Of a DNA stretch of 64,000 bases, positions 2,677 through 59,004 are shown piece by piece. This stretch comes from Bacteroidales bacterium (GTDB taxonomy: Bacteria; Bacteroidota; Bacteroidia; Bacteroidales; VadinHA17): assembly GCA_041686075.1 (NCBI GenBank), contig JAWLEO010000009.1, positions 30,488 through 94,487 of the forward strand, written 5' to 3'. The position numbers and the translations under genes are program-made. Position 1 is the stretch's first letter. Each line of letters opens with the position of its first letter. A model generated the notes under the pieces. It searched no databases. It had not been told where the DNA came from and was given only the letters and a program-made list of their open reading frames with translations.

Positions 2677-3266
2677 AGCTTCAAAAAATTATTCAATATT
2701 TCAATCCCCGCCTCCCCTGATTTTTCCGGGTGAAACTGGCATCCAAAAAAGTTATCTCTTTCAATGGCAGCGGCGAAAATCCCATGGTAATAGCTGTTTG
2801 CCGCTGTATATTTATTGTGGGGAACATAATAGCTGTGCACGAAGTACATGTTGGTCCCCTCACCTATCCCTTCAAAGAGTCTGCCCCGGAGATTATCAAT
2901 TATATTCCATCCCATATGAGGCACCTTGATATTACCTTCAGCCCTACCCCTGAAATCTTGCACCCTGCCACCCAGAACGCCAAGGCATTGAGTGTCTCCC
3001 TCATCGCTTACCTCCATCATCAATTGCATCCCCAGGCATATGCCCAGCACAGGCTGCTCCAGCACGGGGATCAGCCTGTCAAGCCCCTTCTCCCGTATCC
3101 TCCTCATGGCACTGATGGCATTGCCCACGCCGGGAAAAATTATCTTATCGCTGCCCGAGATGACCTTCTCATCGGCAGTGAGCACCGGATCGTAAGCCAG
3201 CTTCCTGCAGGCATTGGCAACCGAGAAAAGGTTGCCGGCCCCGTAGTCGATGATTGATATTTTCAT
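2673..3266 (-). CDS. hisH: imidazole glycerol phosphate synthase, glutamine amidotransferase subunit
   Basis: 197 aa with [12 protein letters not shown], the nucleophile elbow GICLGMQL and FVHSY. Its stop overlaps the hisA/F start (ATGA). Confidence 0.9.
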
Positions 3267-3274
3267 TTATAGTC

Positions 3275-4924
3275 TCAGTATTTGGTGCTTTGTATTCTGT
3301 TATCTGTTATTTCCATTGCCTGCTTAAGTGAGCGTGCGAATCCTTTAAAGACTGCCTCAATAATATGATGGTCATCTTCGCCTTCCGCTTCAATATTAAG
3401 GGTGAAGCCGGCATTGTCAGCCAGCGAGCGGAAGAAATGCTTAAACAGACTGGCGGGGATGCCGCCTGTAACATCAGTATGTAGGTTAACATCCCACACC
3501 AGCATGTTCCTGCCACCGATGTCGATTGCAACCGTTGCCCTGCTCTCGTCCATGGGCATGACAAAACCGTAGCGGTTCATTCCCTTCCTGTCGCTTAAAG
3601 CCTCATTCAGTGCCTGCCCCAGGCTTATGGCAATGTCTTCCACGGTGTGATGTATGTCCACATCGATATCGCCCGAGGCCCTGATAAGAATGTCGGTCTT
3701 GCTGTGGAAAGCAAATAATTCCAGCATGTGGTCGAGGAAGCCCTTGCCTGTCTGTATATCTGCTATGCCCCTGCCACGCAGGTTGATATCAACAAGGATA
3801 TCTGTCTCCCTGGTACGCCTGCGCTTCACCGCCTGGGAACCTAGCTCTTCATCCGCCGCAGCCGGCACACCCCTGAAGAAATTATTTATCTCGTCAAGGA
3901 GGATCATATTCTCGTCTTCCCTTCCCACTGTTATCCTTAGGCACCCCTCACATAAGGGCATAGCCGAACGGTCGCGTACAACAATGCCCTTTGCCAGTAG
4001 GTAATTATACAGCCTGGTGGGCTCCTCTACCCTCACCAGGATAAAGTTTGCATCCGAGGGAAAGACTTTTTTCACTCCTTTTATTTTTCCCAGCACCGCT
4101 GCGAGCTTTTCCCTGTTCCTGGTGATCCTTTCCACCTGCGACCGGTACACCTCCTCCCTGTCCAGGGCATTGAGTGCCGCTGCCAGGGTGAGGCTGTTTA
4201 CATTATATGGCATCTTAATGGAGTTCAGCACCTTGACCAGGTCGGGGTGGCCGAAGCCGATGCCCAGCCGTGCCCCTGCCATGGCGCGTGCCTTGGAAAA
4301 GGTGCGCATGATAAAGATATTTTCAAATTGACTGATCTTGGGGAGAAAGCCTTCCGTCCCCGAAAAATCGACATAAGCTTCATCGATTACAACAAGCCCG
4401 TCAAAGCGATCAACAATCTTTTGCACTTCTGCCACGGGAGCCAGCTTACCGGTGGGGTTATTTGGCGAACAAATAAACACTATCCTGGTATTGTCATCCA
4501 CGGCCTTCATTATCTCTGCCGCACTGAAAAGAAAATCATTGCCGGGAAGGACTTCTTTCACCGTCACGCTATTTGTTTCTGCCACCACCCTGTACATGCC
4601 ATATGTGGGAGGGATGGTTATCACGTTGGACACGCCAGGTACGGTGGTGGCCCTCACCACCAGGTCGAGTATCTCATCGCTGCCGTTACCCACGATGATC
4701 CTGTCCTCCCCTATGCCGGTCATGCCGCTGATCCTTTGCTTCAATTCCGGTTGCAGCGGATCGGGGTACCTGTTGAGCCCTGTCACACCCCTGAATGAAG
4801 AAGCGTAGGGATTTTCATTTGCATCCATATAGATCCTGGCCCTCCCGGTAAATTCATCCCTCGCCGACGAATACGGCTTCATGGTCACCAGGTCGGGACG
4901 GATTATGCTTTTCATCTTGCTCAT
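3275..4924 (-). CDS. hisC/hisB: fused histidinol-phosphate aminotransferase (HisC) - imidazoleglycerol-phosphate dehydratase (HisB IGPD domain)
   Basis: 549-aa ORF. The N-terminal ~350 aa are class-II aminotransferase-like (YPDP, NPNNPTG, SFSKA). The C-terminal ~180 aa are IGPD-like (TGKGFLDHMLELFAFHS, DIHHTVEDIAISLG, DDHHIIEAVFKGFARSL). No HAD-type phosphatase domain is seen. Confidence 0.85.
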   Translation of the reverse strand: MSKMKSIIRPDLVTMKPYSSARDEFTGRARIYMDANENPYASSFRGVTGLNRYPDPLQPELKQRISGMTGIGEDRIIVGNGSDEILDLVVRATTVPGVSNVITIPPTYGMYRVVAETNSVTVKEVLPGNDFLFSAAEIMKAVDDNTRIVFICSPNNPTGKLAPVAEVQKIVDRFDGLVVIDEAYVDFSGTEGFLPKISQFENIFIMRTFSKARAMAGARLGIGFGHPDLVKVLNSIKMPYNVNSLTLAAALNALDREEVYRSQVERITRNREKLAAVLGKIKGVKKVFPSDANFILVRVEEPTRLYNYLLAKGIVVRDRSAMPLCEGCLRITVGREDENMILLDEINNFFRGVPAAADEELGSQAVKRRRTRETDILVDINLRGRGIADIQTGKGFLDHMLELFAFHSKTDILIRASGDIDVDIHHTVEDIAISLGQALNEALSDRKGMNRYGFVMPMDESRATVAIDIGGRNMLVWDVNLHTDVTGGIPASLFKHFFRSLADNAGFTLNIEAEGEDDHHIIEAVFKGFARSLKQAMEITDNRIQSTKY

Positions 4925-5001: not shown

Positions 5002-5097
5002 ATCTCGCATCTCACATTTCGCCTCTCGCCTCTCGCATCTCGCCTCTCGCATCTCGCCTCTAATTCCTTCCCCTGCTCCCTGCTCCCTGCCCCCTGC
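5002..5097. repeat. simple-repeat tract inside the hisD-hisC/B spacer: (CTCGCMT)n followed by (CCCTGCT)n
   Basis: Direct reading gives ctcgcatctcacatttcgcctctcgcctctcgcatctcgcctctcgcatctcgcctc, then cccctgctccctgctccctgccccctgc. The same units occur at five or more other loci in the window. Confidence 0.85.
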
Positions 5098-5131
5098 ATT
5101 TTTCCCTCCATTCATAATTCATAAATAATAA

Positions 5132-6412
5132 TTAATACTTCCTTTTTCTTATTCGTACAGCATTCACATGGGCATCCAGGTTTTCCGCTTCGGCCATCTT
5201 CTCAACATAGGGACCTATCACTGCCAGTCCTTTTTCAGACACTTTCTGAAAAGTTATCTTTTTCAGGAAGCTGTCGAGCGACACACCGCTCCATCCCCTG
5301 GCAAAACCATTGGTGGGAAGGGTATGGTTTGTCCCCGAAGCATAGTCCCCCACGCTCTCGGGGCTGTAGTTGCCCAGGAAGACCGAGCCCGCATTGACAA
5401 CCCTCTCTGCCATCCCCTCGGGATCTCTCACCGAGAGTATCAGGTGTTCAGGGGCATAATCATTCATCACCTCTATAAGCTCCGTCGTTCCCGGCACTAT
5501 GATGGCTGCCGACCCTTCAAGGGCCTTATCGATTATTTCCTTGCGACTGAGATTTTTCTTTTGTTGCTCCAGCTCCCGTGCAACCCGATCCGCAAGCTCC
5601 CTCTCTGTGGTCAGCAGCACAGCCTGGCTGTCCGGGCCGTGCTCGGCCTGTGATAGCATGTCAGCGGCAATGAATGCAGGTTCAGCTGTTTCATCAGCCA
5701 CCACCATAACCTCGGAGGGACCGGCAGGCAGATCTATGGCAATGCCTTCCCTTGCAGCAATCTGCTTGGCCGCTGTCACGTACTGGTTCCCCGGCCCGAA
5801 GATCTTATCGACCCTGGGGACGCTTTGAGTGCCGAAAGCCATTGCCCCCACCGCCTGTATCCCTCCTGCCTTGAATATCTTTGTCACACCCGTTACCGAG
5901 GCAGCATAGAGTATGACAGGGTTTATTTCGCCCTTGCTGTCGGGGGGAGTACACATAATTATCTCTTTGCATCCCGCCACACGTGCAGGCACGGCGAGCA
6001 TAAGGACGGAGGAGAAGAGCGGAGCCGTCCCGCCGGGTATATAAATACCCGCTTTCTCGAGGGGCACTCCTTTTTGCCAGCAGTACACTCCCGGCATGGT
6101 GCCTATCATCCTGGGCACTGTCTTCTGGCTTGCATGGAAGAGTTCAATATTTTCCACCGCCCTGTTAATGGCTTCCTTCAGGCCGTCGTCAATGCCTTCG
6201 ATTGCTCTGTCTATTTCTTCGGGGCCGACAAGTATATCGTCCAGCCGGGCGCCGTCATACTTGAGGGTGTACTTTGCCAGTGCACTGTCGCCATCCTTTT
6301 TTATAGCATCGAATATTTCATTCACCAGTGGCTCTATCTCAGAGAGATCCTGCACCGGGCGTTTAAGTATCTCTCGCGTTTCATTGATGTTTGTATATTC
6401 AAATATTCTCAT
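5132..6412 (-). CDS. hisD: histidinol dehydrogenase
   Basis: 426 aa, HisD-like throughout (SQAEHGPDSQ, GDYASGTNHTLPT). Confidence 0.9.
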   Translation of the reverse strand: MRIFEYTNINETREILKRPVQDLSEIEPLVNEIFDAIKKDGDSALAKYTLKYDGARLDDILVGPEEIDRAIEGIDDGLKEAINRAVENIELFHASQKTVPRMIGTMPGVYCWQKGVPLEKAGIYIPGGTAPLFSSVLMLAVPARVAGCKEIIMCTPPDSKGEINPVILYAASVTGVTKIFKAGGIQAVGAMAFGTQSVPRVDKIFGPGNQYVTAAKQIAAREGIAIDLPAGPSEVMVVADETAEPAFIAADMLSQAEHGPDSQAVLLTTERELADRVARELEQQKKNLSRKEIIDKALEGSAAIIVPGTTELIEVMNDYAPEHLILSVRDPEGMAERVVNAGSVFLGNYSPESVGDYASGTNHTLPTNGFARGWSGVSLDSFLKKITFQKVSEKGLAVIGPYVEKMAEAENLDAHVNAVRIRKRKY

Positions 6413-7534: not shown

Positions 7535-7588
7535 GAGAATGAGTTTAGAATGCCTGCCTGCCGGCAGGCAGGAGTTTAGAATGAGTTT
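7535..7588. repeat. (GAATGAGTTTA)3 tandem repeat interrupted in phase by a perfect 20-bp palindrome
   Basis: gagaatgagtttagaatg [cctgcctgccggcaggcagg, 7553-7572] agtttagaatgagttt. Removing the palindrome restores an uninterrupted 11-bp-period array. Confidence 0.8.
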
Positions 7589-7600
7589 GTTAATAGTAGT

Positions 7601-7967
7601 TATTCACCGCCTCCAGCGGTGATTGTGTTACAAAACCCTGCTCCCTGCTCCCTGCCCCCTGCAAAACCCACGGAGTGAATAATAGCCGGGGTTTCACCCC
7701 CGGATAAATGTGGCACAATAACAATCCCACCCGCGGAGCGGGTTAATAATAATATCCCTGCTCCCTGCCCCCTGCCCCCTGCAAAACCCACGGAGTGGGT
7801 AATAGCCGGGGTTTCACCCCCGGATAAAAGCCACAAAAAAACCCCCCCCCCGCGCGCGCGGATATTTTTGTTTTTGCCCCTTATCCGCAGGTGGGACTGC
7901 GGATATTCCTATTCACCACCTCCGGCGGTGTTTGGTATTACAAAAAGCCCTCTCCCGCGCGCGCGGG
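7601..7967. repeat. cluster of REP-like hairpins upstream of the RAYT gene
   Basis: Contents: type-A hairpins ATTCACCRCCTCCRGCGGTG (7601-7621, 7911-7930); a type-B hairpin ATCCGCAGGTGGGACTGCGGAT (7883-7904); CCGGGGTTTCACCCCGG x2; ACCCRCGGAGYGGGT x2; CCGCGCGCGCGG x2. A 73-bp block is repeated with a 120-bp period (7636-7708 and 7756-7828). Confidence 0.85.
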
Positions 7968-8020
7968 ATAAATAATTTCTTATCTTTGGTGTAATCGCTG
8001 TATCAATTAAATATTTAATT

Positions 8021-8473
8021 ATGTCTACTTACACACAAATCCTTTATCAGGTTGTGTTCGGAAGTAAAAAATGTACACCGTTTCTTACAAAGACCAACCA
8101 GGATGAATTATTCAGGTACATGGCCGGGATACTTAAGAACAAGAAATGTTTTACCTACATCGTCGGGGGACATTCAAATCACATCCATCTTGTTTTCAGC
8201 CTGCATCGTACTATTGCACTCGCAGATCTTGTCCGGGATGTAAAGAAAGCATCGGAGGAAATGATGTTTAAAACGAAAGGTAAATTCGTCAGGTTCATAG
8301 GCTGGCAATCGGGCTATGGTGGGTTCACTTATTCGTACGGTTCGCGCGAACAGCTGATCAGGTATGTGGAAAACCAGGCGGAGCATCACAGGAGGATTAG
8401 CTTCAGGGAGGAATTAATTGGTTTCCTCAAAGATTTTGGTGTGGAATATAACGAAAAGTATCTTTTTGTATGA
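8021..8473 (+). CDS. REP-associated tyrosine transposase (RAYT; IS200/IS605 Y1 transposase-like)
   Basis: 150 aa with HUH motif HSNHIHLVFS and C-terminal YVENQAEHH (catalytic Tyr helix). It is flanked on both sides by REP-like hairpin arrays. No IS ends or tnpB were seen. Confidence 0.8.
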   Translation: MSTYTQILYQVVFGSKKCTPFLTKTNQDELFRYMAGILKNKKCFTYIVGGHSNHIHLVFSLHRTIALADLVRDVKKASEEMMFKTKGKFVRFIGWQSGYGGFTYSYGSREQLIRYVENQAEHHRRISFREELIGFLKDFGVEYNEKYLFV

Positions 8474-8478
8474 TTTCC

Positions 8479-8696
8479 TATTCACCGCCTCCAGCGGTGG
8501 GGTAATCTGGGATGATGCCTTTTCCACAGGTGTGACTGTGGCTATTATTATTCACCACCTCCGGCGGTATTGTGATTGTTGTTGATCCTGCTACCCACAG
8601 GTGGGACTGTGGCTATTGTTATTCACCGCCTCCAGCGGTGATTGAGCTACCCACAGGTGTGACTGCGGCTATTATTATTCACCGCCTCCGGCGGTG
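8479..8696. repeat. array of alternating type-A and type-B REP-like hairpins downstream of the RAYT gene
   Basis: Type A at 8479-8500, 8547-8568, 8621-8640 and 8677-8696. Type B (CCACAGGTGKGACTGYGG) at 8524-8541, 8595-8612 and 8651-8668. All are in the same orientation. Confidence 0.85.
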
Positions 8697-8723
8697 ATTG
8701 CTCGGCAAAAGCCCTTAAGGGGC

Positions 8724-15791: not shown

Positions 15792-16180
15792 AGTATTATT
15801 TAAGATTCCAGATTTAAGATTGCCTTACGGCGAGCTCGAATCACTCGCTTGCCTGCGGCAAACTCGAGATTCTCGGTTTAAGATTTAAGAATTATTATTC
15901 ACCGCCTCCGGCGGTTAAGCAATGGACCAATCAAACCCTGATTGCCATCAGGCAGGAAATAATGGAATTTTGGAATAATGGAACGATGGAATAGTGGGTG
16001 AATTATTCTACAAGATTCATAAAACCTAATCCCATTATTCCAATATTCCATTACTCCATCATTCCAGAGGGAATACATCCCCCTGACCCCGTTGGCTCCC
16101 TTCCTTCGACAAGCTCAGGACAAGTTGGTCGTCGAGCTCGTCCCGCTTCGCGGTTCTCGGTTCAAAGGGGGACCATGCGG
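15792..16180. repeat. 390-bp intergenic mosaic of simple repeats and hairpins
   Basis: Contents in order: (TTTAAGA)n flanking a GC-rich core; a type-A REP (15894-15914); CCTGAT-TGCC-ATCAGG; a GGAAT-type long hairpin (15955-16065); the 12-bp palindrome GACGAGCTCGTC; and CCGC-TTC-GCGG. Confidence 0.8.
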
Positions 16181-32269: not shown

Positions 32270-32962
32270 ATGAGCAAACTGCACAGGTACCTGATTGTTG
32301 TGGCAGGGGGCAGGGGATTGAGAATGGGTGCCAAAGGGCCCAAACAATTCCTTTTGCTTGCCGGTCAACCAATGATCTTTCACACCCTTAACAGGTTTCT
32401 TCAATATGATCCCGATATTGAACCTGTAATAGTATTGCCCCCGGGTAGTGAAGGGACATGGAAAGAACTCTGTAAGGAATACAATTTCAGTCACCGCCAT
32501 AATATAATAAAAGGAGGAAGCGAGAGATATGATTCTGTCAAAAACGGACTTTCACTGGTCAGGCAGAAATCACTGGTGGCGGTGCATGATGCTGTAAGGC
32601 CCCTTGTGTCACGTGAAACAATAGACCGCTGCTTCACCGTGGCGGCTAAAAAGGGTAATGCCGTGCCCTTTGTCAGTCCTTCAGAATCGGTGCGGGAAAT
32701 AATTGATGATAAGCGGAACAGGCCCCTTGTACGTGAGAGGGTGGCCCTGATACAGACACCCCAGGTTTTCAGATCTGATATCATCCTGACAGCCTACGCC
32801 AGGGTATACAAGCCCTCTTTCACCGATGACGCCTCCGTTGTTGAAGCCGCCGGGAATAAGATAGAGCTGGTGGAAGGGAACCGGGAAAACATAAAGATAA
32901 CGACAAGGGAAGAGATGGATATTGCCAAGGGGATTTTAAGTATTAATTACGAGAGGCGATAG
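32270..32962 (+). CDS. ispD: 2-C-methyl-D-erythritol 4-phosphate cytidylyltransferase
   Basis: 230 aa with VVAGGRGLRMG...PKQFL and VHDAVRP. Its stop codon lies inside the GCGATAG repeat arm. Confidence 0.85.
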   Translation: MSKLHRYLIVVAGGRGLRMGAKGPKQFLLLAGQPMIFHTLNRFLQYDPDIEPVIVLPPGSEGTWKELCKEYNFSHRHNIIKGGSERYDSVKNGLSLVRQKSLVAVHDAVRPLVSRETIDRCFTVAAKKGNAVPFVSPSESVREIIDDKRNRPLVRERVALIQTPQVFRSDIILTAYARVYKPSFTDDASVVEAAGNKIELVEGNRENIKITTREEMDIAKGILSINYERR

Positions 32963-33655
32963 GCGATAGGCGAGATGCGAAATGCGAACCGAGCAGCGGG
33001 AGTTTCCCGAGTACTCGGGAAGCGAGTGCTGCGAGCTCGCGAGTGGATAGTGATTGTGGCCAGTGGGAACGAGCAAAGGCGAGACGGAGTGAAACGGAGT
33101 CCCTGACCGACCGCATCGAAGATCCAGACCGAAGCGTCTGGAGGGAGTCCGCCTTCGTCCTACGGATTACGGCGGACGAAGCGTCAGGGATACGAAAAAA
33201 ATTACGAAATATGAATTAATTGATTTATATTTGATTTTATTCTCGCTGTATAAAATGTCAGAAGCATTATTAAATAGAACAAAGAAATTTTGTTTAGATG
33301 TCATTTTTCTTGCTAAAAAATTGCCTAAGACTTTTCTTGGGAACTATATCAGGGCACAGATTACAAGATCAGGATGCTCTGTGGCTTCAAATCATCGGGC
33401 TGCAAGGTTGGCGCAGAGTAAAGCTGGATTTGTAGCCAAAATAAGCATCGTTATTGAGGAAGCTGATGAATGTTCATTCTGGTGTGAAATTATAGAGTAC
33501 GAAAAGCTCCTAAATGATCCACTATTGGATAAGGTTTATAAAGAAGCTGATGAGCTGACTTCAATTTTTGTAGCTACCAGAAAAACCATCGAAAAAAATA
33601 ATAAATAATCTTCATCCTTATTTTTTATTTCGCATCTCGCATCTCGCATCTCGCA
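32955..33655. repeat. inverted-repeat cassette 1: (GCGAKAK)n arm / four-helix-bundle gene / (MTMTCGC)n arm
   Basis: The left arm ggcgataggcgataggcgagatgcgaaatgcga (32955-32987) is complementary to the right arm cgcatctcgcatctcgcatctcgca (33631-33655). Confidence 0.75.
33255..33608 (+). CDS. four-helix-bundle protein (23S rRNA intervening-sequence protein / DGR Avd family)
   Basis: 117 aa from the ATG at 33255 (the ORF track starts at a TTG at 33231). Family-typical pattern: ...QITRSGCSVASNHRAA...F..K..IVIEEADECSFW. A TATATTTG box lies at 33226-33233. Confidence 0.7.
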   Translation: MSEALLNRTKKFCLDVIFLAKKLPKTFLGNYIRAQITRSGCSVASNHRAARLAQSKAGFVAKISIVIEEADECSFWCEIIEYEKLLNDPLLDKVYKEADELTSIFVATRKTIEKNNK

Positions 33656-35706: not shown

Positions 35707-35725
35707 TTTCCGGGCAATAAAAATT

Positions 35726-36448
35726 AAGGCTGAGGCTGAGGCTAAGGCTAAGGTTCCCTCCTCCGCTGAAGCTTCGGAGGGCAGAGAGAAGGCTGAGGCT
35801 GAGGCTAAGGCTAAGGTTCCCTCCTCCGCTGAAGCTTCGGAGGGTAGAGAGAAGGCTGAGGCTAAGGCTAAGGCTAAGGCTAGGAATATCTTCGATGATT
35901 TATTTAGATGATTTATAATGAATTTTAATTTTTTGCTTATTTTTATATAACGATCGGTAATAGTATTCGCTGCATTTATTCATTAGATAAACTATTCACA
36001 GAAATTAAAATGGCATATAAAGATTTTACTGAGATGCCTGTTTGGAAGAAAGCATTTTATCTTCTTTTATTAGTATACAGGTTAACCAAAAAATACCCTG
36101 CTGAGGAGAAATTCTTTTTGGTATCAGATATGCGTAGAGCTGCTCATTCGGTTACTAATAATACCGCAGAAGGTTTTGGCAGATATGAATCATTTGATAA
36201 AACCAGGTTTTATAAAATAGCTAGGGGTAGCTGTTACGAGCTTATTAATCAAAGTCTTGCCTCGAGAGCACTAGATTATATTACAAGTCATGAAAAGGAT
36301 GAACTGGTAAATGGATACCGTGATGTTATTTCCGAATTAGATTCCATGATAAAAACCATCGAAACCACAAAAAAAGAAATACACCGGTACTGATTTAAAT
36401 TTATAATAGCTCAATTCTCTCCTTAGCCTTAGCCTCAGCCTTAGCCTT
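35726..36448. repeat. inverted-repeat cassette 2: (RAGGCT)n arms around a four-helix-bundle gene; the left arm carries a 63-bp tandem duplication
   Basis: The left region 35726-35884 holds 63-bp units at 35726-35788 and 35789-35851 plus a partial third. Each unit is (RAGGCT)4-5 plus the hairpin CCTCCG-ctgaagctt-CGGAGG. The right arm ctccttagccttagcctcagccttagcctt (36419-36448) is its complement. Confidence 0.8.
36010..36393 (+). CDS. four-helix-bundle protein (23S rRNA IVS protein / Avd family)
   Basis: 127 aa with the family pattern RRAAHSVTNNTAEGFGRYESFDKTRFYKIARGSCYEL. Confidence 0.75.
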   Translation: MAYKDFTEMPVWKKAFYLLLLVYRLTKKYPAEEKFFLVSDMRRAAHSVTNNTAEGFGRYESFDKTRFYKIARGSCYELINQSLASRALDYITSHEKDELVNGYRDVISELDSMIKTIETTKKEIHRY

Positions 36449-36530
36449 CTTATTCCTTGAATATCCGGAATAATCTTGCTAATATTACACCATCCTGAGA
36501 ACCTTGCCTTAACTATTTAATAAACTTCAA

Positions 36531-38031: not shown

Positions 38032-38032
38032 T

Positions 38033-38333
38033 AAGGCTAAGGCTGAGGCTAAGGAGGGCATCCGGGTGATTGCAATATGCTTATTGCTATTTTTGGGGAT
38101 ATTAAACATATTCAGGGGTAATAGGGTTGAAAAAGTTGAATAAAGTTGAGAAGAATAAGTTTAAAACGAGAAGGTTTAAGTGATTTATATTGGACTTAAG
38201 AAATAAACTTTTAGACTATTTATCTTTAGACTGCCGACTGGACCGGCGAGGTTCTAAATCCTTGAATGCAAACCAGAAAATTGAAACCCTCCTCTATTCC
38301 TTAGCCTTAGCCTTAGCCTTAGCCTCAGCCTTA
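38033..38333. repeat. ORF-less inverted-repeat element with (RAGGCT)n arms
   Basis: Left arm aaggctaaggctgaggctaagg (38033-38054). Right arm ccttagccttagccttagccttagcctcagcctta (38299-38333). The ~245-bp A/T/G-rich loop has no credible ORF. Confidence 0.75.
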
Positions 38334-38912: not shown

Positions 38913-39015
38913 TTGCTGAAAAATTCAGTTACAGGTGCAAGTTATTCATATTATTCATTAAAAGAAATTGTTTGATGAATTTTTTAGAATTAATCGGTCG
39001 AATATTCGAATAATA

Positions 39016-39578
39016 GCAGGGAGCAGGGAGCAGGGAGAATGCAATAATCTGTAATAATTCATATATTTATTTAAAAATTATTAGTTTATAACTCGTTGCA
39101 TTAAAACTGGAAGAACATGAAAAATTTTCGATTTGAAGATTTAAAGATTTGGCATGATGCCATTAATCTCGGAGACAGGCTATTTGATATTGCAGAAATA
39201 GCTGATAGCAAAAAGCTCTATAAATTTGCGGAGCAATTAAGAAGCTCAGGTTTATCAATTTCAAATAATATAGCAGAAGGAGCCGGGTCTTTTTCAAAAA
39301 AGGAATTCAGTCAATTCCTTAATATTGCCAGAAGATCAGTTTTTGAGTGTGCAAATATGATTATAATATTCCACAGAAGATTAATAATTGATGATTTAGT
39401 TAAAACCGAAATTATAAGTGATCTGGCTTACTTAAGCAAAAGAATTACATCTTTCAGGAACTCACTTATATAACATAAGCTTCTTCGGACCCTTAGTGAG
39501 GCTTCCAAACTATTTACTAGCAGAGTGAAGTAGGTAATTTAACTTTATTCCCTGCTCCCTGCTCCCTGCTCCCTGCTC
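39016..39578. repeat. inverted-repeat cassette 3: (GCAGGGA)n arms around a four-helix-bundle gene
   Basis: The left arm gcagggagcagggagcagggag (39016-39037) is complementary to the right arm tccctgctccctgctccctgctccctgctc (39549-39578). Confidence 0.8.
39117..39473 (+). CDS. four-helix-bundle protein (23S rRNA IVS protein / Avd family)
   Basis: 118 aa with the family pattern QLRSSGLSISNNIAEGAGSFSKKEFSQFLNIARRSVFE. Confidence 0.75.
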   Translation: MKNFRFEDLKIWHDAINLGDRLFDIAEIADSKKLYKFAEQLRSSGLSISNNIAEGAGSFSKKEFSQFLNIARRSVFECANMIIIFHRRLIIDDLVKTEIISDLAYLSKRITSFRNSLI

Positions 39579-48628: not shown

Positions 48629-48892
48629 AGGCTGAGGCTAAGGCTAAGGCTAAGGGGAAGGCAGGGGGCAGGGAGCAGGGAGCAGAGAGCAGGGAGCAGG
48701 GAGCAGGGGGCAGGGAGCAGGGAGCAGGGAGCAGGGGGCAGGGGGCAGGGTGGTCAAAATGGAACTGCTACCAGCTGCCAAATCATAATTAATAATTAAT
48801 ACTTAATTTCTCCTTCTCCTCACTGTGTCCGCCGAAGCTAGGCACGGATCGGGAGATCCGCGCCAGCGAAGGTGGAGCCTCAGCCTTAGCCT
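48629..48892. repeat. ORF-less composite element: (RAGGCT)n arm, 13 x GCAGGGR heptads, hairpin core, complementary arm
   Basis: Order of parts: aggctgaggctaaggctaaggctaagg (48629-48655); (GCAGGGR)13 (48661-48750); GGCACGGATC-GGGA-GATCCGCGCC hairpin (48841-48864); gagcctcagccttagcct (48875-48892). Confidence 0.8.
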
Positions 48893-58788: not shown

Positions 58789-59004
58789 GGGTCAGGGGAG
58801 ATGTATTGCCTCTGGAATACTGGAATGAAGGGGTGAGCTTATATGAAGATTATAGCCTTGTAGAATGCAAGGATAAAGAAATATAGTGCTACCTGGTAAA
58901 ACAACTGAATAGTATAAAAGTCTAGTACCCTTTATCCAATCACTTAGAATAATTAACCCATTATTCCACTATTCCAGTATTCCATTATTCCAATATTCCA
59001 TAGG
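58789..59004. repeat. GGAAT-type hairpin element, inverted copy of the 15955-16090 element
   Basis: gggtcaggggagatgtattgcctctggaatactggaatgaagggg (58789-58833) ... cccattattccactattccagtattccattattccaatattccatagg (58957-59004). The first block is the reverse complement type of 16060-16090. Confidence 0.75.

Follow-up and report, generated by a model that had tools for sequence, protein, structure and literature searches.

Most of the PF05635/TIGR02436 family members that we examined were packaged like an rRNA intervening sequence (IVS), yet lay between ordinary genes. Inverted repeat arms (score of at least 13.5) flanked 113 of 157 related genes (72 %) from at least six phyla, as compared with 6 of 207 control genes (3 %) from the same loci, showing that the architecture is strongly and specifically tied to this four-helix-bundle family across phyla. 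Three such cassettes were present in the window, the 64,000-nt stretch of Bacteroidales DNA analysed here. By analogy with the rRNA elements, we lean towards the explanation that cassette 1 (32950–33655) belongs to an old and widely distributed cassette type whose arms would form a duplex in the transcript, be cut by RNase III and also recombine.

To our knowledge, a function for this very large family is known only in diversity-generating retroelements. If the explanation is true, the family gains a concrete context (arms, RNase III and possibly repeat binding by the protein), the rRNA IVSs become a special case of a general cassette, and an origin is offered for hairpins of intergenic simple repeats, the cyanobacterial STRRs among them. 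The IVS anatomy is known from rRNA, while for its arrangement around four-helix-bundle genes between ordinary genes we found no published description in literature searches with the family names, PF05635 and the arm sequences, whose coverage excluded most subscription journals.

Anatomy of the cassettes in the window

Cassette 1 occupies the spacer between ispD and a DUF4197 gene and consists of a PF05635/TIGR02436 gene flanked by inverted heptamer-repeat arms (Table 1), the left of which takes in the final codons of ispD together with its stop (32960–32962). No terminator-like site was detected between ispD and the DUF4197 gene in a sigma-70 promoter and terminator scan that was itself uninformative. 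The arms that the initial annotation had described as complementary (32955–32987 and 33631–33655) did match, at 86–94 % over 18–28 nt, the repeat search pairing 32956–32983 with 33627–33654 (86 % over 28 nt), 32963–32988 with 33629–33654 (88 % over 26 nt) and 32970–32987 with 33637–33654 (94 % over 18 nt); the complementarity is good, short of perfect. The best inverted match of the flanks scored 18.5, as compared with 9.2±0.9 (maximum 11.5) in dinucleotide shuffles, and the arm duplex was calculated at −41 kcal/mol, as compared with −19±3.6 kcal/mol for shuffled arms.

Table 1. Cassette features and gene-less arm pairs in the window
Feature	Position	Strand	Description
Gene-less hairpin, octamer arms	15958–16066	+	AATAATGG (5 units) / CCATTATT (4.4 units), 34-nt loop
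Cassette 1 left arm	32950–32988	+	G/purine-rich heptamers GCGATAG/GCGAGAT/GCGAAAT, ~4.4 units
Cassette 1 GC-hairpin block	32989–33195	+	Small GC-rich hairpins separating left arm from promoter-like region
Cassette 1 leader	33196–33254	+	AT-rich; TATATTTG box at 33226–33233
Cassette 1 gene	33255–33608	+	117-aa four-helix-bundle protein; PF05635, TIGR02436
Cassette 1 right arm	33627–33655	+	C/pyrimidine-rich TCGCATC heptamers, 3.7 units, complementary to left arm
Cassette 2 left arms	35725–35882	+	Three AAGGCT/GAGGCT hexamer arrays: 35725–35753, 35789–35816, 35852–35882
Cassette 2 gene	36010–36393	+	127-aa four-helix-bundle protein
Cassette 2 right arm	36421–36450	+	CCTTAG/CCTCAG hexamer array
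Gene-less arm pair, cassette-2 unit type	38032–38333	+	TAAGGC (3.8 units, 38032–38054) / CCTTAG (5.8 units, 38299–38333)
Cassette 3 left arm	39015–39037	+	AGCAGGG heptamers, 3.3 units
Cassette 3 gene	39117–39473	+	118-aa four-helix-bundle protein
Cassette 3 right arm	39549–39578	+	TCCCTGC heptamers, 4.3 units
Gene-less arm pair	48629–48892	+	AGGCTA (48629–48655) / AGCCTC (48876–48892)
Gene-less arm pair	58813–59001	+	TGGAATACTGGAAT / CCATTATT (5.5 units), 131-nt loop

The hairpins, the AT-rich stretch with its box and the 117-aa ORF were all found as first annotated, except that the GC-hairpin block measures ~205 bp instead of ~270 bp. The block has no counterpart in the orthologous cassette of the relative L172 and is therefore a secondary, lineage-specific insertion; its first hairpin gave the only Rfam match up to E 1, a sub-threshold one to Transposase-2 RNA. 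In cassettes 1 and 2 alike, the GC hairpins seem to have been inserted separately and later. The TATATTTG box, kept as TATATTTA in L172, resembles the Bacteroidota −7 promoter element, and the AT-rich leader is possibly an internal promoter.

The same architecture, with PF05635 genes inside the arms, was confirmed for the two further cassettes of the initial annotation. Cassette 2 lies between a 379-aa gene and a small ORF; its three left arrays are separated by two GC-hairpin copies, the whole forming a 63-nt tandem of 2.4 copies, and its left and right arms are 93–100 % complementary. Cassette 3 lies between a TetR gene and lgt, with its gene antisense to both, its right arm overlapping the lgt stop codon (minus strand) and its arms 100 % complementary over 22 nt. 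Taken together, the arms of the three cassettes span 18–30 nt at 86–100 % complementarity, their duplexes (−41 to −61 kcal/mol) are far more stable than those of shuffled arms (z=−6 to −13), and the whole-cassette MFE and centroid folds are closed by the arms in every case (z=−4.7 for cassette 1). All three contain a promoter-like box inside the arms, so that a cassette's own mRNA would be without the 5′ arm.

The three proteins scored 44.9, 94.0 and 84.3 bits, respectively, against PF05635 (cut-off 33.8) and 66.1, 90.6 and 78.5 bits against TIGR02436 (cut-off 24), with E values of 1.4e-11 and 2.9e-18 for cassette 1. They belong to the S23p/TIGR02436 branches and, as had been proposed, are only distantly related to each other, with pairwise identities of ~25 %. 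The closest solved structure to the cassette 1 protein is 2RLD (E 2e-11), while the cassette-2 family profile matches 2GSC (XCC0516; E 1e-23), both deposited with five chains. A single-sequence search with the cassette 1 protein returned 5,169 clusters at 50 % identity. All three proteins were without a match among the PADLOC defence-system models, and tblastn against a phage collection gave no match. The dN/dS ratios were 0.056 for cassette 1 (against L172), 0.088 for cassette 2 (against the relative L002) and 0.12–0.144 for cassette 3, showing strong purifying selection on the proteins. The dS values were 0.6–0.9 for cassettes 2 and 3, as compared with 1.0–2.3 in flanking genes, and 1.86 as compared with 1.99 for cassette 1; we dropped the lower dS as a sign of transfer, since composition bias (if the genes are AT-rich, as the window suggests) and NG86 saturation could yield the gap.

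A point beyond the initial annotation is that the cassette repeat units recur at other places in the window where no four-helix-bundle gene is present, namely four gene-less arm pairs and a number of orphan arrays, indicating that arms can persist without the gene. The pair at 38032–38333 begins directly 3′ of the fucosidase stop codon and encloses a 244-nt AT-rich loop, while the loop of the pair at 48629–48892 contains 12.9 copies of GCAGGGA and a GC hairpin. No four-helix-bundle remnant was found in the gene-less loops by six-frame profile search and blastn, the sole similarity being a 22-nt promoter-like stretch. The window also carries an IS200-like Y1 transposase gene, flanked by unrelated, REP-like hairpins, and gave zero Rfam matches at gathering thresholds over its whole length, hence no rRNA.

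Arms across the protein family

Arms were scored as the inverted match of the gene flanks, with 13.5 or more as the mark, and compared with dinucleotide shuffles, direct repeats and neighbouring control genes. In the cassette-2 family, the inverted arms beat every shuffle in 62 of 78 genes and direct repeats did so in three; at cassette-3 loci, 57 of 79 genes reached 13.5 with inverted arms and seven with direct repeats; and five of the seven distinct loci of the cassette-1 family had arms at or above the mark. The initial annotation's expectation that family genes would generally have arms, inverted rather than direct, was thus borne out for the majority, while about a quarter of the members were without clear arms. 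The carriers were Bacteroidota, Ignavibacteriota, Chloroflexota, KSB1, Marinimicrobia, Calditrichota, one Thiohalospira and cyanobacterial plasmids, whose four-helix-bundle genes have heptamer or hexamer arms; in Nostoc punctiforme the upstream array reaches the start codon and includes AGGAG. Among cultured organisms, cassettes are carried by Maribellus sp. CM-23, Sunxiuqinia elliptica CGMCC 1.9156, N. punctiforme (plasmid pNPUN01), Flavobacterium columnare (between gmk and nadD) and Bacteroides thetaiotaomicron. Several copies may occur per genome, as with the three within 7 kb of the window and four loci from one MAG.

A typical arm was composed of ~4.5 units (medians 4.3–4.6) of 6–8 nt, 26–31 nt in all, although arrays ranged from 3 to >13 units. 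The period was 6 in 60 of 71 cassette-2-family arrays, with the unit AGGCTR, and 7 in 57 of 61 cassette-3-family arrays, with the unit GCWNRGR, each unit being specific to its subfamily across phyla. Within the units, the positions AGG and GC...G were 92–97 % invariant and the others nearly free. The upstream arm was purine-rich in 115 of 116 cassettes and had more G than C in 114 of 116.

At the free unit positions, pairing within cassettes was barely better than between them (0.74 vs 0.72 and 0.73 vs 0.67), and among arm mismatches G:T showed no excess over A:C (51 vs 49 and 48 vs 68). Compensatory change at fine scale, which would mark a stem in the sense RNA, is therefore not in evidence, and nothing in these two tests shows pairing in that RNA to be the selected property. 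Arms in cis did outscore permuted partners (16.7 vs 13.2 and 17.9 vs 12.1; z ~11), a result that we set aside as proof of selection for pairing because matched array length and shared descent may explain it. The initial annotation's claim of conserved complementarity without conserved arm sequence did not stand as worded, since the type and period of the unit follow the protein subfamily and part of each unit is near-invariant; its covariation argument at the element level is only partly right. The near-invariant positions speak for a factor that recognises the sequence, or for a process that generates repeats, rather than for pure selection on a stem.

Most cassettes with clear arms sit between ordinary same-strand genes, the left arm starting a median of 6–9 nt past the upstream stop codon. 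Where the flanks are co-directional, the cassette gene was co-oriented with them in 68 cases and anti-oriented in seven, which is the sole informative orientation figure; co-orientation with both neighbours was rejected as a special feature, being found for 81 % of cassettes and 84 % of ordinary genes in the loci.

Comparison with relatives and with known systems

Comparison with relatives, a second point beyond the initial annotation, showed that the cassette interior flips evolutionarily between fixed arms. The cassette-2 interior is inverted in L002 with respect to the window, within homologous flanks. The cassette-3 site has three arrangements in three relatives with the arms fixed, the interior being flipped between the window and L187, and cassette 3 together with the TetR gene being inverted in L189. 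Since the interior flipped while the arms stayed put, the arms appear to act in DNA too. No mixture of orientations was seen within a population, and no recombinase gene adjoins the cassettes, whose neighbours encode IspD, DUF4197, the 379-aa protein, alpha-L-fucosidase, TetR and LGT. Relatives carry a GH38 gene between cassette 1 and the DUF4197 gene that is missing from the window, and L002 has TTCGCAT-like repeats upstream of DUF4197. Contigs often broke at arms.

The initial suggestion that the cassettes may be selfish or mobile was supported in part: one orthologous nuoD-like site holds two different cassette types, and cassette 2 is absent in L172. Against it stand the strong purifying selection and the vertical retention of many sites across genera (Prolixibacteraceae and Ignavibacteriaceae, among others). 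We did not treat the L172 locus as an unoccupied cassette-2 site, because its downstream gene differs too and the comparison is unclean. No target-site duplication was seen by eye at cassettes 1–3.

ORF-bearing 23S rRNA IVSs, as in Coxiella burnetii and in helix 45 of Leptospira, carry an S23p ORF. In the Coxiella IVS, RNase III has been shown experimentally to cut the 28-bp terminal stem in the middle, and tandem GACAGAT heptamers, of strain-variable copy number, lie upstream of the S23p ORF (PMC4990558). The rRNA elements and the cassettes thus have in common the protein family in the loop, terminal inverted repeats (a ~28-bp stem in the former), a total length of ~430–700 nt and, for cassette 1, tandem heptamers upstream of the ORF (of the GCGAGAT type). 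Because the Coxiella IVS matches this build, the reading of the initial annotation, an IVS-like cassette outside rRNA, is supported as a statement of anatomy. The cassettes differ from the rRNA IVS in their host, a spacer between protein-coding genes instead of an rRNA helix, and in the promoter-like boxes inside the arms of the window cassettes. In addition, their proteins are under strong purifying selection, whereas in Coxiella the ORF is reported as decaying and probably not translated, and RNase III cleavage is proven for the Coxiella IVS but only predicted for the cassettes.

The arms also resemble the cyanobacterial STRRs, ~7-nt tandem repeats in operon spacers that can form hairpins. 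STRR heptamers such as those between hupS and hupL have been proposed to act in transcript stability or translational coupling (PMC2670836), and an STRR inside the RNase P RNA gene is mentioned in a passage of PMC2858038 that cites Vioque (1997). The period (7 nt in cassettes 1 and 3, 6 nt in cassette 2) and the capacity to form hairpins match, while unit sequences and organism differ; the STRR literature that we found describes no enclosed gene and cyanobacteria only, whereas the cassettes here are from a Bacteroidales-like bacterium. We found no published link between STRRs and the PF05635 family.

The Avd protein of diversity-generating retroelements has this four-helix-bundle fold too, its pentameric barrel binding RNA stem-loops (bioRxiv 10.1101/2023.10.23.563531). 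Unlike these retroelements, the cassettes adjoin no reverse transcriptase gene, and general repeat scans of the three cassette regions returned the arms and the 63-nt tandem, with no template/variable repeat pair. REP/BIME elements with RAYT (Y1) are likewise short, abundant, hairpin-forming intergenic repeats after stop codons, but the arms are simple tandem repeats bracketing a specific gene family rather than a unique palindromic unit. Like the cassettes, Bacteroidales invertons have a promoter-containing segment between inverted repeats, and its orientation varies between relatives; unlike invertons, the cassettes have no adjacent site-specific recombinase gene, and their arms are simple repeats of 25–90 bp.

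Proposed mechanism and alternative explanations

In the mechanism that we favour, the cassette is a four-helix-bundle gene (S23p/Avd fold) set between two inverted short-tandem-repeat arrays, the G/purine-rich one first and the C/pyrimidine-rich one last, and placed at or a few bases past the upstream stop codon; this is the anatomy of the ORF-bearing 23S IVS moved to spacers of protein-coding genes. A transcript crossing the cassette from either direction would make the G-rich arm first, which would pair with the C-rich arm in a duplex of ~25–30 bp that loops the cassette out. RNase III, by analogy with rRNA intervening sequences, would cut this duplex, freeing the cassette RNA from the RNAs of its hosts, with both host cistrons left usable. 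In DNA, the arms would double as substrates for recombination, by which cassettes are inverted and perhaps exchanged, and the conserved unit positions suggest a sequence-specific reader of the repeats, possibly the encoded ring-forming protein itself. We counted against this mechanism the promoter-like boxes inside the arms, the antisense position of cassette 3 with respect to its hosts, the approximately one-quarter of members without clear arms and the gene-less pairs and orphan arrays.

The arms might instead serve in DNA only, as recombination substrates by which cassettes are inverted, deleted or exchanged, with complementarity maintained by intramolecular gene conversion or template switching and the RNA stem a by-product. 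The interiors flipped in L002 (cassette 2) and in L187 and L189 (cassette 3) with respect to the window, the strand symmetry of the mismatch spectrum, the absence of GH38 from the window with the TTCGCAT-like repeats in L002, and the frequent contig breaks at arms would all agree with this, and the shared simple units would supply portable homology between sites. We nevertheless consider it unlikely, since it leaves unexplained the G-rich-first polarity of 115 of 116 cassettes, the 68:7 co-orientation, the abutment of arms on stop and start codons and the build shared with rRNA IVSs of proven RNase III processing, and no recombinase gene adjoins. A MITE-like non-autonomous transposon, whose terminal inverted repeats would be the arms and whose transposase would be encoded at another locus, seems very improbable. 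Inverted-repeat ends, multiple copies per genome, the two cassette types at the nuoD-like site, the lack of cassette 2 in L172 and the Y1 transposase gene in the window could be cited for it. However, the arms are simple repeats of variable length, unlike defined transposon ends, the Y1 gene is flanked by unrelated hairpins, target-site duplications were not seen by eye at cassettes 1–3, many sites are vertically kept, and L172 is no clean empty site.

That a homopentameric ring protein reads its own units in RNA or DNA, for autoregulation or for control of stem folding or processing, with complementarity secondary, would make the repeat units candidate binding sites. Such a role is consistent with the tracking of protein subfamily by period and motif across phyla, with the partly invariant units, with the absent fine-scale pairing signal and with the median of ~4.5 units per arm beside five-chain crystals of the relatives 2RLD and 2GSC, and further with the RNA binding of Avd and the Nostoc array. 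As the whole account it appears rather doubtful: the link between unit and subfamily is equally expected from common descent of the cassette as one unit, arrays vary from 3 to >13 units, gene-less pairs persist, and an arm of 26–31 nt also suits the substrate length of RNase III. Mere coincidence, in genomes littered with STRR-like simple-repeat hairpins among which the four-helix-bundle genes happen to stand, would accommodate the units shared by the gene-less pairs and orphan arrays of the window. It is scarcely credible, the comparison of arms in 72–79 % of family genes with 3 % of neighbours bringing it close to refuted, and isolates and distant phyla show the association too, with unit type following the protein subfamily.

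Beyond the RNase III-processed cassette that we favour, it is conceivable, although we hold it to be speculative and on balance improbable, that the cassettes form one phylum-spanning class of intervening sequence for any long-lived transcript (rRNA, stable-RNA loci and operons), in which a pentameric protein would read its own 6- or 7-nt units and govern stem formation or RNase III cleavage, and of which STRRs and the simple-repeat hairpins of Bacteroidota would be arms or footprints. In practice, metagenome assemblies are broken by the arms, which can also reverse the orientation of genes from one strain to another and may influence host-operon expression.

Cassettes and gene-less arm pairs in the window

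The initial annotation had placed a four-helix-bundle gene (PF05635/TIGR02436, S23p/Avd fold) in the loop of a long inverted repeat, and had described the same architecture with different arm units at two further loci. The arms of the first locus (cassette 1) were found where they had been claimed, and matches to both family models bore out the identity of the gene. All three parts described between them (GC hairpins, an AT-rich stretch with a box and the ORF) were present, although the hairpin block was shorter than the ~270 bp claimed. The left arm overlaps the ispD stop codon (32960-32962). The arms of cassette 1 exceed chance expectation: its flanks gave an inverted match score of 18.5 as compared with 9.2±0.9 for shuffles, the arm duplex reached -41 kcal/mol as compared with -19±3.6 for shuffled arms, and both the MFE and the centroid folds were closed by the arms (z=-4.7). 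Cassettes 2 and 3 repeated this build with other units, and the three proteins were, as had been noted, distant relatives (~25% identical to one another). No further four-helix-bundle gene of this family was found in the window.

Features of the cassettes and gene-less arm pairs in the window
Feature	Position	Description
Cassette 1, arm pair	32956-32983/33627-33654	28 nt, 86% complementary (repeat search)
Cassette 1, inner arm pair	32970-32987/33637-33654	18 nt, 94% complementary (repeat search)
Cassette 1, GC-hairpin block	32989-33195	~205 bp, after left arm
Cassette 1, AT-rich leader		bears TATATTTG at 33226-33233
Cassette 1, ORF	33255-33608	117 aa; PF05635 E 1.4e-11; TIGR02436 E 2.9e-18
Cassette 2	35725-36450	build as cassette 1; hexamer arms AAGGCT
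Cassette 3	39015-39578	build as cassette 1; heptamer arms AGCAGGG
Gene-less arm pairs	15958/16032; 38032/38299; 48629/48876; 58813/58958	

Units of the cassette arms recurred elsewhere in the window (Tandem Repeats Finder). A systematic scan found seven inverted simple-repeat arm pairs, three around four-helix-bundle genes and four gene-less, with no detectable remnant of such a gene in the gene-less loops. One of these pairs (38032-38333), of the cassette-2 unit type, immediately follows the stop codon of the fucosidase gene and reaches that of TetR, on which it ends; its loop of 244 nt holds no family ORF and bears a box, GATTTATATTGGA, resembling the promoter-like box of cassette 1. In another (AGGCTA/AGCCTC, 48629-48892) the loop holds 12.9 copies of GCAGGGA and a GC hairpin, with no gene, one unit type being nested in the loop of another. 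The window also has orphan arrays. Three of them lie side by side at 5002-5141 between two apparent minus-strand genes (ATCTCGC, 8.6 copies; CCCTGCT, 3.9; ATTCATA, 4.6); read along the minus strand they correspond to the G-rich left arms built of cassette-1 and cassette-3 units, and no complementary partner was found within 1.5 kb.

Arms around related genes

We fetched 80 genome loci of the cassette-2 family (the protein subfamily related to that cassette gene), 80 metagenome loci of the cassette-3 family and a handful of the cassette-1 family, and scored arms as the best ungapped match between 500 nt upstream and the reverse complement of 300 nt downstream of the gene. The inverted match exceeded the maximum of 40 dinucleotide shuffles in 62/78 cassette-2 family genes (direct repeats, 3/78), the inverted score was at least 13.5 in 57/79 genes of the cassette-3 loci (direct repeats that high in 7), and clear arms were present at five of seven distinct cassette-1 family loci. 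A score of 13.5 was reached by 56/75 family genes as compared with 6/207 other genes of the same loci, used as controls (3%). Most family genes sampled thus have complementary arms, inverted rather than direct, and the arm observation is confirmed and greatly generalised. Carriers among the loci fetched include Bacteroidota, Ignavibacteriota, Chloroflexota, KSB1, Marinimicrobia, Calditrichota and one Thiohalospira, with Maribellus and Sunxiuqinia as isolates. The arrangement also occurs on cyanobacterial plasmids: in Nostoc punctiforme pNPUN01, AGGAGTC/AGAATTC heptamers follow a stop codon and run up to the ATG of the gene, after which come ACTCCTG/ACTTCTG and the next ATG, and Geminocystis has AAGGGA/TCCCTT arms between parA and parB.

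The unit period tracked the protein subfamily, being 6 nt in 60/71 upstream arrays of the cassette-2 family and 7 nt in 57/61 of the cassette-3 family; cassette-1 relatives carry heptamers such as GCGAGAT, GAGAGAT and GAATGNC. Arms had a median of 4.3-4.6 units (26-31 nt), and the unit logos mixed near-invariant and free positions (hexamer, A-G-G-C-[T/G/A]-[A/G]; heptamer, G-C-[A/T/G]-N-[A/G]-G-R). The upstream arm was purine-rich in 115/116 cassettes, with G>C in 114; since the G-rich arm of the inverted repeat comes first on either strand, this polarity is independent of gene direction. The left arm started a median of 6-9 nt past the upstream stop codon and the right arm ended 28-53 nt ahead of the next start codon. 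Where both neighbours were callable (n=84 cassettes), both were on the strand of the gene in 68 and both opposite in 7. Many sites are kept across genera, among them one in Prolixibacteraceae, one in Chloroflexota, a Marinimicrobia ABC-transporter site and an Ignavibacteriaceae site at which the cassette lies upstream of a gene beginning MEVIMPKMGESV.

In a cassette-3 orthologue (L189, GCA_016928075.1, 3360-3465) the right arm has grown to ~13 CTCCCTG units and the left arm has ~4; arm length is unstable and unequal. At an Anaerolineales locus (L030, ~2900-3430) each side of the gene bears a complete small hairpin (AAGGCT array, short loop, AGCCTT array) in place of a single arm, so that pairing of the arrays is possible not only across the gene but also locally.

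Role of the arms in DNA and proposed role in RNA

The arms demonstrably have a role in DNA, by inversion. In a relative whose protein is 90% identical (L002), the flanks of cassette 2 are homologous to those in the window and the interior between them is inverted, and the lgt-TetR site occurs in three arrangements, with cassette 3 co-oriented (L187), flipped (the window) or flipped together with TetR (L189), while the arms have not moved. A role in RNA is favoured by the 68:7 co-orientation with co-directional flanks, by the arms abutting stop and start codons, by the lack of a terminator-like site in the ispD-DUF4197 interval and by an arm length suitable for an RNase III substrate, and, by analogy, the IVS (intervening sequence of rRNA) precedent would point the same way. 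The evidence best supports a model of an IVS-type cassette with arms active in both molecules: in the transcript the arms would pair and loop out the cassette, RNase III would then probably cleave the arm stem, and in DNA the arms demonstrably act by inversion. Processing by RNase III is inferred.

Several results count against simple selection for a stem. G:T mismatches were no commoner than A:C mismatches (51 vs 49 and 48 vs 68), and free unit positions matched within cassettes about as between them (0.74 vs 0.72, hexamer family; 0.73 vs 0.67, heptamer family). The invariant positions point the same way, as they suggest that the units are probably also read sequence-specifically, possibly by the encoded four-helix-bundle protein. 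Cis arms did score above permuted partners (z~11), an advantage explicable by common descent and by arrays of matched length. The element-level covariation claimed earlier therefore holds only coarsely, in that both arms share a unit and subfamilies differ in it; at fine scale the argument does not hold.

The Coxiella 23S IVS (428 nt, in helix 45) is closed by terminal inverted repeats that pair into a stem of 28 bp, and its loop carries an S23p ORF. Tandem GACAGAT heptamers, two or three depending on the strain, stand just 5' of the ORF, and mid-stem RNase III cuts were demonstrated in vitro and by RACE (PMC4990558). The window cassettes agree with it point by point in anatomy and differ in host molecule, upholding, as anatomy, the description of an IVS-like cassette outside rRNA. 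The earlier interpretation thus has partial support, through its anatomy and its IVS analogy. Because no rRNA, the defining host, was found in the window, they are not members of the rRNA IVS class; the resemblance in possible mode of action stands. ORF-bearing rRNA IVSs rank as the nearest known system, followed by the heptamer hairpins of cyanobacterial STRRs, which occur in the hupS-hupL spacer (PMC2670836) and within the gene for RNase P RNA (Vioque 1997, as cited in PMC2858038), then by Avd, the pentameric RNA-binding protein of diversity-generating retroelements (bioRxiv 10.1101/2023.10.23.563531), by REP/RAYT elements, of which the window itself holds an apparent example, and by invertons. 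In a literature search with most subscription journals outside its range, we found no published account of four-helix-bundle genes that lie, outside rRNA, between arms of tandem repeats.

Selection, possible turnover and inserted hairpins

The cassette proteins had dN/dS values of 0.056, 0.088 and 0.12-0.14, and are therefore under purifying selection rather than decaying passengers; the dS of cassettes 2 and 3, below that of their flanks, is ambiguous in meaning. Three cases hint at turnover. An orthologous spacer after a nuoD-like gene ending ...CPPEIER holds one of two cassette types: in two species a gene of another subfamily, whose arms are GTTTRAW heptamers, and in two others a cassette-2-like gene with AAGRCT arms (L037 5308-5698, L062 5229-5625, L067 5184-5571 and L081 ~3000-3366). 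Cassette 2 is absent in L172, where the downstream gene also differs. In L193 (807-2003) a cassette of the cassette-1 family, with a very long GAGTGAT/GAATGAT upstream array, has the genes for a tmRNA (807-1204) and a tRNA-Arg (1931-2003) on either side, a context of stable-RNA genes, not an operon. We infer that cassettes may be mobile; no family members were found in the phage collection.

Relatives have a GH38 gene that separates cassette 1 from DUF4197 and is absent in the window (stretches considered: L002 2940-2990; L172 9473-12796). Repeats of the ATGCGAA type stand immediately 5' of DUF4197 in L002, and the GH38 gene may thus have been lost through recombination of similar repeats.

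An IS200-like Y1 transposase gene (window 8021-8473; PF01797 E 5.8e-16) has numerous copies of the GC hairpin TTATTCACCGCCTCCAGCGGTGATTG and its relatives on both sides (7560-7990 and 8475-8700), with a two-copy 56-nt tandem among them, and resembles a RAYT accompanied by REP-like elements; CCCTGCT heptamer arrays (7636-7662 and 7756-7782) are interleaved with these hairpins. The arms may attract REP-like hairpins. Small GC hairpins were inserted at arms independently in two lineages, after the cassette 1 left arm in the window (32989-33195) and inside the right arm in L172 (9380-9455), and in cassette 2 a hairpin was duplicated along with the left arm (35754-35851).
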